A stretch of 64,000 nt of DNA from Vezdaea acicularis (taxonomy: Eukaryota), in contig JAPEUI010000059.1 in the NCBI GenBank assembly GCA_026025075.1, positions 1 to 64,000 on the forward strand, written 5' to 3'. This document shows, in pieces, positions 11,360 to 15,347 of the stretch. The stretch's first letter is position 1, and each line of letters starts with the position of its first letter. The translations under genes and the position numbers were made by a program. Below the pieces are notes generated by a model, which saw nothing but the letters and a program-made list of their open reading frames with translations, ran no database searches and was not told the origin of the DNA.

Positions 11360-12718
11360 CTATCTCCTTCTTGTAGACCTTACTGGCACACCACCACTAC
11401 CACCAACGCTATTCGCAAAAGTACCTGGCATATCGACCCTGACACCTTCGTCGCCATCATCATCATCTCCCTCGTCACTGCTAGTCGTCGCGCCTTCGCT
11501 AGAACTCTCAACCGACTGTCGGCGTCTGGTCAGCATTGGCTCTGAAGAGCTAGCATAGGCGGCACTACCTGCAGCATATGCTGAACCAGGAGGCTGACGT
11601 CTCAGCGAAGAATACTGCATGTCAGCAGGGCCAGACACGCCCCGTCTTACTTGTGCGTACTGATTAGATAACTGCGGTGAAGGCGGTGAATAAGTTTGGT
11701 ACTGGAACGGGTCAACGGTAGAATGTTGTGACGATGATCGACTTCGCGACATGGGCGTCCAGTCATCTTCATGGGGCAGAGGCATTCGGGCTGTCGGACC
11801 TCTTCCAGACGATGAAGACACCGGTCTGGTCGATGGCTGTGCTCCTTCAGGCATCGAAGCGTAACGTTGTTGAGGGTATTGATTTTGGTAATATTGCGGC
11901 GCCGTGTAAGGCTCTTGTGGATGGGCAGTAGCATTACGCGATACAGGGCGAGAAGCAGGATTCGAAAAAGCAGCATTTGGACCATAGTAGCTCAGAGGAG
12001 CATAGGTAGCGCCGGAAGGAGCGTTCACCATGAAAGCTGGAGGTGCAGCACCACTGCTTAAGGGCGGGCTATCTTGTGGAGTAGCAGCGCTGCTTTTGTT
12101 ACGTCGACGACTGGCCTTTGCTGGAACTAGTGCGGTGGAAGAACTGCGGCTACTCTTCTTCGTTGTCCGATCAGATCCACTGCCACTCTTTATCTTCTTT
12201 TCTCTATTTTTCACTTTCCCAGCACTATTCAATCTTCGAGTGTGCTTCTTCAAAGCTTCATTTTCAGAGTGAGTCAAATGAACAGTCGACTTGCCCTTCT
12301 CTTGAGCTCTTCGAATCCGCTCTAAGGCCCGTTGTATCAGCATATCTTCCTTTTGCTTCATTGCTCTTTGGACTGCCATAGGGTCCGAAGCGTCGGAGTA
12401 ATCCGAATCAGAGGACATGTCTACGTCGTAGGCGCTAGACTCCCCCCTGCGGGTTCGTCCGCCCACGTCGATACCAGTAAAGCGTAGCTGGTCGCTAGCA
12501 TATCGCTGGTGTTGTGGATCTAATTGTATCTGAACTCCTTCGCCATTATCATCATCCTCTTCAGCACTATCAAGCTCTTCAAACCTCCTCTCCTCTTCCC
12601 ACTGTCGTTGTCGTTCCCACTCCTTCCACTTCTTTCCTCCCCTCGCCCCTGGTGGTCTTCCCCAGGGGGGCACATCGTATGGAGTTCGCGGCCGACCACC
12701 TAGACCGCCTCCTCGGAA
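11360..12718 (-). CDS. Long ORF in the -1 frame of YIP3 with no 5' ATG; probable C-terminal trans-frame extension of YIP3
   Basis: 452 open codons from the slippery site (FRGGGLGGRPRTPYDVPPWGR..QKEDMLIQRALERIRRAQEKGK..) to the stop at 11360. It overlaps the last YIP3 codons, and its first in-frame ATG lies about 100 codons in. Confidence 0.8.
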   Translation of the reverse strand, partial: FRGGGLGGRPRTPYDVPPWGRPPGARGGKKWKEWERQRQWEEERRFEELDSAEEDDDNGEGVQIQLDPQHQRYASDQLRFTGIDVGGRTRRGESSAYDVDMSSDSDYSDASDPMAVQRAMKQKEDMLIQRALERIRRAQEKGKSTVHLTHSENEALKKHTRRLNSAGKVKNREKKIKSGSGSDRTTKKSSRSSSTALVPAKASRRRNKSSAATPQDSPPLSSGAAPPAFMVNAPSGATYAPLSYYGPNAAFSNPASRPVSRNATAHPQEPYTAPQYYQNQYPQQRYASMPEGAQPSTRPVSSSSGRGPTARMPLPHEDDWTPMSRSRSSSQHSTVDPFQYQTYSPPSPQLSNQYAQVRRGVSGPADMQYSSLRRQPPGSAYAAGSAAYASSSEPMLTRRRQSVESSSEGATTSSDEGDDDDGDEGVRVDMPGTFANSVGGSGGVPVRSTRRR

Positions 12719-12721
12719 AAA
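12646..12721 (-). other. Candidate -1 programmed ribosomal frameshift cassette (slippery heptamer, spacer and RNA structure)
   Basis: U_UUU_UCC at 12721-12715; spacer GAGGAG; hairpin GCGGUC/GGCCGC (12708-12688) with loop UAGGUGGUC; second hairpin CCCCUGG/CCAGGGG (12668-12646) with loop GGAAGACCA complementary to loop 1. Confidence 0.75.
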
Positions 12722-13230
12722 GCATTCTCGATTGGTCTGTCCATGAATGCGGCATGGCCCAAGATGCTAACACCACTGGCTCCGATCAGCCAAAGTGCTG
12801 TAGAGATCGGAGAGCCAATGATGCCAAGCGGGACACAGATGATGAGAAGACCTGTGTACAGTTGCGAGGTTGTGAGACGAGTAAACCCTAGCTCAAGATC
12901 CTGCCCACCAAGGCGGCCGATTCCCCACATGCCCGCTATGCCGAAGACAAGGACGAAAAGCAATAAGGGCCGCGTTAAAAGGGCGTAAATCGTAAGCATA
13001 AAGAATAATACAACATAATTGCTCGAGAAATACGTCAAGTTGTAATTCACTCGTGCCTGCACCTCTGAGAAATTTGCAGGCTTTGACAAGCGCTTCAGAT
13101 CAAAGAACTCTGAGATGGGCTTCAGATTCGCGAATCTGGAGCCGATCGACTGAGATCGGACGCTGTCAAATCTGCTCCCCAAGTTGAGCCGGGACGTCAG
13201 AGCGTCGAGAGGGATCTGAATTCGTGCCAT
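12700..13230 (-). CDS. YIP3: Prenylated Rab acceptor 1 (PRA1)/Yip3 COPII-vesicle membrane protein, 176 aa
   Basis: NLKPISEFFDLKRLSKPANFSEVQARVNYNLTYFSSNY, two long hydrophobic segments, and WLIGASGVSILGHAAFMDRPIE. Confidence 0.95.
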   Translation of the reverse strand: MARIQIPLDALTSRLNLGSRFDSVRSQSIGSRFANLKPISEFFDLKRLSKPANFSEVQARVNYNLTYFSSNYVVLFFMLTIYALLTRPLLLFVLVFGIAGMWGIGRLGGQDLELGFTRLTTSQLYTGLLIICVPLGIIGSPISTALWLIGASGVSILGHAAFMDRPIENAFSEEAV

Positions 13231-13976
13231 ACTAAGTTATTTGGGATGTGGACTCAGGAGGGTCGAGCTATGAGAGCAAGGAAGAATTTGTGGAAATGTT
13301 GAGGGAATTGCTGCCTGTGCGAGATTGTCAGCAACTCGTATCCAGAATAGCCACCGCCGCAGACTAGTGCAGGCGAGAGGCAAGGCTTAGCTCTACCTTA
13401 TGCAATAGTGCGATGAGTCGAACTTTGTCCAGTGAGGTCCAAGGAGTCGGAGCTGTGGTGAAAGTCGAATATCTGAGGTTGATGAAGATAAAACGTTCTC
13501 CGTGCCTCGCACGGAAATTTTGGCGAGGCGACTTAAGGGGAAAGAGCTAATTTGTCCCTCAGCTAGGGCGAGGGTGGCTCTGCGCTCGCCAACCCAAATT
13601 GGCATGGGCGAAAAGCTCTGCCTCTGGAAGGCGGGACCCGCTATCTCTTGGCTGCCCGAGGCAGCCAAGCTGCTGATTCTTCTATCTCCGAGCGCAAAAT
13701 CAGGTCACCATGATGAAGGGTTGGAAGTTCTCGATGGCACGCGCCCATCTAGAGAGCGTAAGAAAAGTGGGAAAAGAGCGAATGCATGAGAATTAAGTGC
13801 GGCGGGCAGCGACTTATGTAGCAGCGGACGGCCATTTCTAGCCTGCCACGTTCAGGCGAACCGCGCTAAGGGCCTCTAACAGGGAAGTTGCATCCATGCG
13901 AACAGCTCCACGAATTTTCGATCTCGCGATTGTTTGGCATTGGCATTGACCATTGTCTCCGGCGTTTTGTGTCACA

Positions 13977-15347
13977 ATGAGGGTACGACTGTCCGTTGCG
14001 CTGTTGTTGTTCAGTCTCATTGCGAACGTGGCTGGGTGGTCAAAAGAAGGTACGTTGATCCTCGAGGTGGCATGCCACAGCGCACTGCTAAACTCTTCGC
14101 AGATCATGAAATTTTTAGCTTGCGCGATCAGCTCGCAGCGTCTGAAGGGAGTGAAATTACATTCTATGGTATGCACCTGAGCCCGTACTGGAATCGATTT
14201 CACAGATTAACAGCTCACTTTCCTGCAGACTTTCTGGGTGTGAAAGCCTCCGCCTCGCAAGAGGAAATTCAAAAAGCCTATCGCAAAAAGTCCCGTCTGA
14301 TCCACCCGGACAAAGTAAAGAGCCAACTTGCTGCTACGCGGAGTCGAGAACAAGCAGCAGACAAGAAAGCGAAGAAGGGCAAGAAGCCTGGGGTGGTCGT
14401 CAGTAAACCCCCATCCCAAGCCGAAGTCCAGAAAGCAATCAAGAAAGCCACAGAGCGCTGGGCCCGTCTCGGCGTGGTGGCTACCATCCTAAAAGGACCG
14501 TCCCGCCAGCGGTACGACCACTTCTTGAAGAACGGCTTTCCAGCATGGAAGGGAACAGGGTATTACTATGCACGGTTCAGGCCTGGTTTGACTTCAGTGC
14601 TTCTCGGGCTGTTCATTGTTTGCGGTGGCGGGGCCCATTACGGGGCGTTATATATGAGCTGGAAGCGGCAGAGGGAGTTTGTGCAGAGATATATAACCCA
14701 TGCGCGGCGAGCAGCTTGGGGTAATGATGTCGGTATAAGTGGAATTCCGGGTGTTGACAGCGCTGGGACGCCAGCATCCGTGCCAGCGCCTCAAGAGAGT
14801 GATGGCGGTATGCAGGGATTGAACAGAAAGCAAAGAAGAATGCAAGAAAAGGAGAACAAGAAGGGAAAAGGCTCGAAAGAATCTGGCCGGACAACGCCTC
14901 CAGAGGTACCTGTACCGAAGACAGGGCATCGTGGGGACAAAAAGAAAGTAGTTGCGGAGAATGGTAAGGTCCTCCTAGTTGACTCGGTGGGGAACGTCTA
15001 CCTCGAAGAAGAGAACGAGGAGGGGGAAACTGAGGCGTATCTGCTTGATGTAAGTTAAGCCCACTCACCGACAGCCTCTTAGGTACTAATACGTATTGTC
15101 CTTGCAGATCGAGGAAATTCGTAAGCCTACTATCAAGGATACCGCGCTCTTTCGCTTCCCTATCTGGGCTTTCTACCGTTCCTTTGGACGGCTCCTGGGA
15201 AGCGGCTCTCCTGCTACAGAAGCTGCCACGCTTGAAACACAGAGCGACTCTGGCACAGAGAGCGACGATGCTGTTCTGGTAGAGAAGCCCGGCGCTAATG
15301 GCGCTGCATCAAGGAAACGTAACCGACGAAAGGGGAAGCAAAATTAA
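13977..15347 (+). CDS. ER membrane J-domain (DnaJ) protein, Erj5-like, multi-exon
   Basis: Signal peptide MRVRLSVALLLFSLIANVAGWSKE, then DHEIFSLRDQL, J-domain with HPDK, RYDHFLKNGFPAWKGTGYYYARFRPG and a transmembrane segment. Introns near 14050-14103, 14169-14228 and 15049-15107. Confidence 0.85.

Follow-up and report, generated by a model that had tools for sequence, protein, structure and literature searches.

Does the YIP3 gene of Vezdaea acicularis end at its own stop codon, or do some ribosomes change frame just before it and read on? The question is raised by the minus strand of contig JAPEUI010000059.1 (assembly GCA_026025075.1), of which positions 1 to 64,000 of the forward strand were analysed (the window). 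There, the YIP3 open reading frame (ORF) overlaps a second, longer ORF in the -1 frame. The stretch 13230-11360 (-) is in all likelihood the orthologue of Podospora anserina PaYIP3, a YIP3/PRA1 gene expressed via programmed -1 ribosomal frameshifting. In PaYIP3, -1 frameshifting at U UUU UCC was described by Malagnac et al. (2013; PMC3777964, taken here from the available portion of its text), and the slip site, spacer, bulged stem 1 and homologous tail of the window match that description. An original prediction, made from the letters of the sequence, had proposed a -1 frameshift fusing Yip3 to a tail of about 450 amino acids (aa) and had pointed to a precedent in P. anserina. The precedent is indeed in print, and the proposed fusion agrees with it. 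The novelty that the prediction implied does not hold, the mechanism having been published already (PMC3777964).

The proposed course of translation is as follows. Most ribosomes would stop at the TAG (12702-12700) and release a 176-aa Rab-GDI (GDP dissociation inhibitor) displacement factor. A minority would shift one base backwards at U UUU UCC (12721-12715), helped by a G+C-rich bulged stem 2 nt downstream that probably closes into a pseudoknot. The slipped ribosomes would read about 451 further codons to produce a 623-aa membrane-anchored isoform, the tail of which would be mostly disordered, with one conserved helical hairpin.

The published case provides the experimental background. The PaYIP3 messenger RNA (mRNA) covers the YIP3 ORF and the longer -1 ORF, and 12 P. 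anserina complementary DNAs (cDNAs) are colinear with the gene at the site, indicating an unspliced mRNA (PMC3777964). A wild-type PaYIP3 allele tagged with green fluorescent protein (GFP) at the end of the tail gave an 88-kDa band on western blots, the size of the fusion, and a yeast dual reporter showed 1% frameshifting versus 0.3% out of frame (PMC3777964). Apart from Ascosphaera apis and Arthrobotrys oligospora, every member of the Pezizomycotina that was examined had the layout, with Capnodiales and Ophiostomatales carrying a +1 version (PMC3777964). According to the authors, YIP3 is the sole cellular gene unrelated to retroelements with protein-lengthening -1 frameshifting (PMC3777964). 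The case has been reviewed by Atkins et al. (2016; PMC5009743). Earlier, Espagne et al. (2008; PMC2441463) had listed 14 candidate recoded genes, and the available main text of that article contains neither 'YIP3' nor 'frameshift'.

Two reading frames at the end of YIP3

The anatomy of the locus can be read directly from the DNA (Table 1), and sequence comparison shows that both ORFs have homologues and that their two-frame layout is conserved. The zero-frame ORF spans 12700..13236 and encodes 176 aa counted from the ATG (13230-13228, minus strand). Its 3' end reads ...AAT GCT TTT TCC GAG GAG GCG GTC TAG, the GCT codon lying at 12723-12721. The position given by the original prediction for the heptamer T_TTT_TCC, just before the YIP3 stop, is correct to the base. 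Likewise, the ORF list agrees with its claim of a -1 frame open for 452 codons to 11360, and the lack of an ATG for about 100 codons in that frame is confirmed by a first Met at residue 101/452. From stop to stop, the -1 frame opening covers 11360..12766 (468 aa), and the 452-aa tail translated from TTC at 12718 begins FRGGGLGGRPRTPYDVPPW. The slip product would comprise 623 aa and 68.3 kDa, against 19.4 kDa for the short form. The in-frame openness was retained by 0/20000 mononucleotide shuffles of 12721..11360; because of this result and of the 103 database relatives of the tail, the opening is not attributed to chance.

The signal itself is not canonical. The heptamer U UUU UCC does not fit X XXY YYZ, as its positions 4-6 are U, U and C, and the gap between slip site and stem 1 is 2 nt, outside the canonical 5-9 nt that the original prediction had expected. 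The PaYIP3 heptamer was likewise judged not to be X XXY YYZ; re-pairing of the serine transfer RNA (tRNA-Ser(IGA)) on UUC is possible there via a G-U pair, and single slippage of the P-site tRNA was suggested as the likelier mode for YIP3 (PMC3777964). For the window, the mode of slippage (tandem or P-site only) and the choice of stem 2, discussed below, are inferences. Tandem slippage would give ..NAFS-RGG.., while P-site-only slippage would give ..NAFF-RGG... The junction peptide ..IENAFFR.. originally predicted would thus be right for P-site-only slippage and wrong for the tandem mode.

The YIP3 ORF matches the Pfam family PRA1 (PF03208; E 1.9e-39, 135 bits versus a cut-off of 30.1) over residues 32-172, which correspond to profile positions 2-142 of 143. 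Since the profile match extends to residue 172, the PRA1 domain runs through the slip site. The Pfam search assigned no family to the -1 tail, for which 103 relatives are present in the database at E <= 0.001; the named ones are all Pezizomycotina, and the rest come from unnamed assemblies. The best named match is from Pycnora praestabilis (Candelariomycetes; 45% identity, E 3.9e-83), followed by other lichen-associated fungi. PF03208 is present in 31/103 of the tail relatives (410-700 aa), which represent PRA1-tail fusion models. In the remaining relatives the tail stands alone in the gene model, and several carry the name 'Prenylated Rab acceptor 1' despite having no PRA1 domain; Atlas returns for the tail only clusters automatically given this same name, without a Pfam family. 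The expectation that annotation would miss the long isoform is therefore borne out by the stand-alone tails but not by the 31/103 relatives modelled as fusions, which are obtained via ad hoc introns.

The conservation of the tail begins at the slip site itself. In an alignment of the window with seven fusion models from named fungi (A2, 8 sequences), the -1 frame peptide FFRGGGLGGRPR, spanning and following the slip site, is invariant. P33, G36, R37, P38 and R61 of the tail are invariant both in A2 and in all 20 sequences of a larger alignment (A1), where W35, E64, D92 and G98 are nearly invariant. These conserved residues all precede the first in-frame Met of the window.

The AlphaFold2 model of the tail, based on a 56-sequence alignment, has a mean predicted local distance difference test (pLDDT) score of 52.3, with values <50 at 273/452 residues. 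It contains two helices, at residues 113-141 and 150-173, in a block with pLDDT of 85-96, and the alignment columns from E124 to L156 are nearly invariant. S, R, A, P and G are abundant in the tail, whose isoelectric point is 9.6. The model fits a tail that is largely disordered, as originally predicted, except for one conserved helical hairpin.

Conservation of the layout and of stem 1

Metagenome contigs were scanned with the peptide pattern R[ER][CG]FFRGGG, giving 48 confirmed fungal loci that collapsed to 33 unique 84-nt sequences, or 34 with the window. An alignment of YIP3 3' ends had been proposed as a check on the original prediction, and the two-frame layout is kept in 48/48 of these loci. 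In all of them, the zero frame ends at the same place, 6 codons from the start of TTT, and the third frame is closed within 13-78 codons. The tail frame comprises 246-496 codons in the 36 loci that reach a stop, and the other 12 are open to the contig end. The heptamer is TTTTTCC in 47/48 loci and TTTTTCA in one, though the scan pattern largely required it. In the single variant (L018:1604-1610), a UCA Ser codon occupies the A site and the remaining signal is intact, which fits the A-site codon mattering less than the U-run.

Two groups can be distinguished among the unique sequences. The window-like group (22, including the window) has the common loop UCUAGGUGGUCGR, and the truffle-like group comprises 12 with other loops (L031, L032, L036-L041, L045-L048). 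The tail of L041 shares 68-74% identity with Tuber and Choiromyces (Pezizomycetes) proteins, so the truffle-like group stands for the deepest lineage in which the extension is said to occur. The truffle-like loci have the slip site and stem 1 in common with the window, and their tails match the window tail only over approximately the first 20-40 residues. In L030, L039 and L040, the match to the window tail is longer but weaker (24-31% identity). About 60-73 codons upstream, an interruption, presumably an intron, breaks the YIP3 frame of the truffle-like loci.

Both the minimum free energy (MFE) and the centroid fold contain a 10-bp stem 1 with a 3-nt bulge, beginning 2 nt past the heptamer. 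Its 8 core pairs are formed in 34/34 unique sequences. The third base of the bulge varies (A, G, C or U among loci), and the adjoining paired bases are invariant. When the window is compared with the P. anserina reporter sequence, one stem-1 pair differs on both sides, being U-A in PaYIP3 and C-G in the window; both substitutions fall at third codon positions and are silent in the tail frame. The published PaYIP3 structure is a stem-loop, possibly a pseudoknot, located 2 nt downstream, with a G-C base to stem 1 and a conserved 3-nt bulge (PMC3777964).

A candidate long-range stem 2

The stimulatory pseudoknot may use a long-range stem 2, in which GGUGGUC (12700-12694) would pair with GACCACC (12657-12651). 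This is a tentative proposal that we would sooner doubt than assert. In 33/34 unique sequences, the loop can form a helix of 7 bp or more with the 36 nt that come next. Stem 2 was counted in a register anchored manually on UGGYC and GRCCA, where 234/238 cells are paired; sliding the partner by 1-3 nt leaves 32-135/238. The observed pairing was reached by 0/2000 permutations of the 3' arms among sequences; given the relatedness of the sequences, this count should not be read as a probability. All 12 truffle-like unique sequences keep stem 2 in the anchored register, with 5 to 8 consecutive pairs each, and the pairing is also kept across the 22 window-like sequences. The arms encode G-G-R / R-P-P in the window-like group versus M-V-S / G-P-S in the truffle-like group. 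Because these amino acids differ between the groups, protein constraint alone does not explain the kept complementarity.

Variation within the helix is limited. The pair types at one stem 2 position are G-C (16), G-U (8) and A-U (7), with 3 unpaired; a second position shows U-A (31), U-G (2) and C-G (1), and a third G-C (31), A-U (2) and A-C (1). Both sides change at three positions, two of them passing from G-C to A-U via G-U and the third from U-A to C-G via U-G. Against stem 2, this compensatory support amounts to only about 3 events, a helix of at least 7 bp appears in 1577/5000 shuffles of the loop and downstream stretch of the window, and covariation within the 12 truffle-like rows is not above that of shuffles (129/500 reach it). 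A short-range alternative, in which GGUG pairs with YGCC (4 bp), is possible in 22/34 sequences and in 0/12 truffle-like ones. A separate count of stem 2 on a MAFFT alignment (A3) was discarded, as its truffle-like rows were misaligned by one column in the loop.

The proposal has a bearing on the published reporter. The yeast reporter fragment stops 16 nt past stem 1, so the stem 2 drawn in PMC3777964 must lie inside it. In L026 and L028, the loci nearest to P. anserina, the gap between stem 1 and the 3' arm of stem 2 is 23 nt. If P. anserina resembles them, the published fragment would be without the long-range 3' arm. Were this the case, the absent arm could account for the 1% efficiency as well as for the lack of a pseudoknot reported in Tuber, and reporter constructs should reach about 70 nt past the slip site.

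Table 1. Positions of the probable YIP3 frameshift locus and its elements in the window
Feature	Position	Strand	Details and basis
YIP3/PRA1 orthologue, zero-frame coding sequence	12700..13230	(-)	176 aa + TAG, 19.4 kDa; ORF list, Pfam
Slip site T TTT TCC (U UUU UCC)	12715..12721	(-)	Zero-frame codons Phe171, Ser172
2-nt spacer GA	12713..12714	(-)	Sequence; GA 32/34, GG 2/34 unique sequences
Stem 1 5' arm GGAGGCGGUC	12703..12712	(-)	MFE and centroid fold
Stem 1 3' arm GGCCGC-[GAA]-CUCC, bulge 12687-12685	12681..12693	(-)	MFE and centroid fold
Zero-frame stop TAG, in hairpin loop	12700..12702	(-)	Sequence
Candidate stem 2 5' arm GGUGGUC, in stem-1 loop	12694..12700	(-)	Inference, moderate support
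Candidate stem 2 3' arm GACCACC, 23 nt past stem 1	12651..12657	(-)	Anchored-register pairing
Competing local hairpin, would sequester stem-2 3' arm	12646..12668	(-)	Fold, -16.4 kcal/mol
-1 frame tail ORF, Pezizomycotina-specific C-terminal extension	11360..12718	(-)	452 codons + stop; ORF list, homology
Tail helical hairpin, residues 113-173	12200..12382	(-)	AlphaFold2; sole confidently folded part

Upstream of the locus, the divergent neighbour of YIP3 (13880-15058, plus strand) is a 392-codon open frame with a DnaJ J-domain (PF00226, E 2.3e-9). The 5' leader of YIP3 contains a possible 82-nt intron (13396-13315, minus strand), read by eye, with a poor GTAGAG donor, a CTGAC branch-like motif and a CAG acceptor. 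It would parallel the 173-bp intron in the 5' untranslated region of PaYIP3 (PMC3777964).

Alternatives, precedents and meaning

Four other explanations could account for the two overlapping ORFs. Splicing might join them if a short intron close to the end of YIP3 shifted the frame, as the 31/103 relatives modelled as PRA1-tail fusions would have it; on paper, 157 GT..AG combinations in the window could bring the frames together. However, the junctions of the fusion models differ by species (after ..GATG, ..FMDR, ..LIGA and ..LWLI), which indicates automatic frame repair instead of a conserved intron. As judged by eye, 0/20 distinct donor hexamers fit GTRNGT and 1/20 fits GTRNGY, and this sole GTRNGY donor would remove about 60 residues of the PRA1 domain, a profile match to which extends to residue 172. 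Among the candidates, the short ones (35-77 nt) that would leave the conserved peptide intact have no CTRAY branch site and, in P. anserina, the 12 cDNAs colinear at the site also argue against splicing (PMC3777964), which makes it a highly improbable explanation. That the tail is translated alone and never fused, through an internal promoter, reinitiation after the YIP3 stop or a non-AUG start, is very unlikely as well. It would suit the many stand-alone tails of 400-450 aa in databases and the in-frame ATG that many relatives have 13 codons past the slip site (..D M P..). This ATG, however, is not conserved: among 39 unique 126-nt sequences, those of the window-like group have Met, Val, Leu or Ala at the position. 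The window has GTG there, with its first Met at residue 101, downstream of invariant tail residues. Moreover, conservation of the -1 frame peptide extends through the slip site itself, and a fusion-sized band was obtained from the tail-tagged wild-type allele of P. anserina (PMC3777964). As a matter of annotation, prokaryote-style gene callers begin the tail at an ATG, or at a GTG read as Met, in the long loop of the putative pseudoknot.

The two remaining explanations concern the T-run itself. Slippage of RNA polymerase on the T5 run could add one U and bring the tail in frame, so that the fusion would arise by standard decoding, and the 12 cDNAs could miss a variant present at a few percent. 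However, for polymerase to slip efficiently, a run of five U is short. The run is followed 2 nt later by a conserved structure. The yeast reporter fell from 1% to 0.3% with the slip sequence out of frame (PMC3777964). The adjacent conserved structure and the frame dependence of the reporter favour a ribosomal event, leaving polymerase slippage with very little probability. Finally, homopolymer runs are commonly hit by sequencing error, and an assembly indel in the T-run was named in the original prediction as an observation that would overturn it; a related possibility is a decaying gene, once an in-frame fusion and now broken. The indel is not borne out, as the same frames are found in 48/48 independently assembled window-like and truffle-like loci and the same arrangement occurs in P. 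anserina, where sequencing errors were discounted (PMC2441463). The tail, open over 452 codons, speaks against decay, and the probability of either event is practically negligible.

Several points weigh against a programmed frameshift at this locus. In the published work, the efficiency in yeast was only 1%, the PaYIP3 pseudoknot gave no stimulation of a canonical slip site, and a constitutively fused PaYIP3 allele failed to complement (PMC3777964). In the comparative data, the scan pattern imposes the slip site (bar two Y positions and the N positions) and the first 9 nt of stem 1, and the truffle-like loci were confirmed by tblastn within the first ~30 residues, so that the 3' arm of their stem 1 is partly ascertained as well. 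No covariation was found among the core pairs of stem 1, as the 8 pairs never vary in the 34 unique sequences; an invariant core is therefore neutral with regard to the helix. Stem 2 has a competitor in the window, a local hairpin (12668-12646), although over the 34 sequences no more than 66.7% of its cells pair. Taken as a whole, the 92-nt fold does not outperform shuffles (z -0.73). With a z of this size, the pairing of the slip heptamer UUUUUCC (12721-12715) with GGAAAGA (12637-12631) that is seen in the MFE fold is probably due to chance. Production of the long form in this fungus is deduced by orthology.

The programmed frameshift that we favour for the window resembles PaYIP3 in having a PRA1/YIP3 5' ORF with U UUU UCC a few codons before its stop, a 2-nt spacer, a G+C-rich stem 1 with a 3-nt bulge, and a long -1 tail without a known domain (PMC3777964). 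The short form measures 19.5 kDa in PaYIP3 and 19.4 kDa in the window, whereas the long form is larger in the window (68.3 versus 61.6 kDa). The lineage also differs, in that the window tail has its best named matches in leotiomyceta associated with lichens, for example Pycnora; neither 'lichen' nor 'Lecanoromycetes' occurs in the main text of PMC3777964. Canonical viral -1 signals, such as that of infectious bronchitis virus (IBV) 1a/1b, have in common with YIP3 a U-rich heptamer, a G-C-based stem or pseudoknot and a C-terminally extended product. However, they use an X XXY YYZ heptamer and a 5-9 nt spacer, neither of which is present in YIP3, and it was the IBV slip site that the YIP3 pseudoknot did not stimulate in yeast (PMC3777964). 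The mammalian genes Edr/PEG10 and Ma3 are cellular too and use -1 frameshifting to lengthen a protein, and the Edr pseudoknot has a 3-nt bulge in stem 1 as well, but these genes are derived from retroelements, an ancestry that YIP3 is reported not to show (PMC3777964). Bacterial insertion sequences with P-site-only -1 slippage are comparable in that the re-pairing of UUU to UUU would be perfect at the YIP3 site, which, in contrast, belongs to a eukaryotic nuclear housekeeping gene.

The observation is correct, but the YIP3 frameshift to which it points has already been published, and the window holds an orthologue from another filamentous ascomycete. It gives no new principle, and finds the site intact in one more lineage. 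Its practical value is a caution for the annotation of this family, in which public gene models are inconsistent, with invented introns in 31/103 relatives and orphan tails in others.

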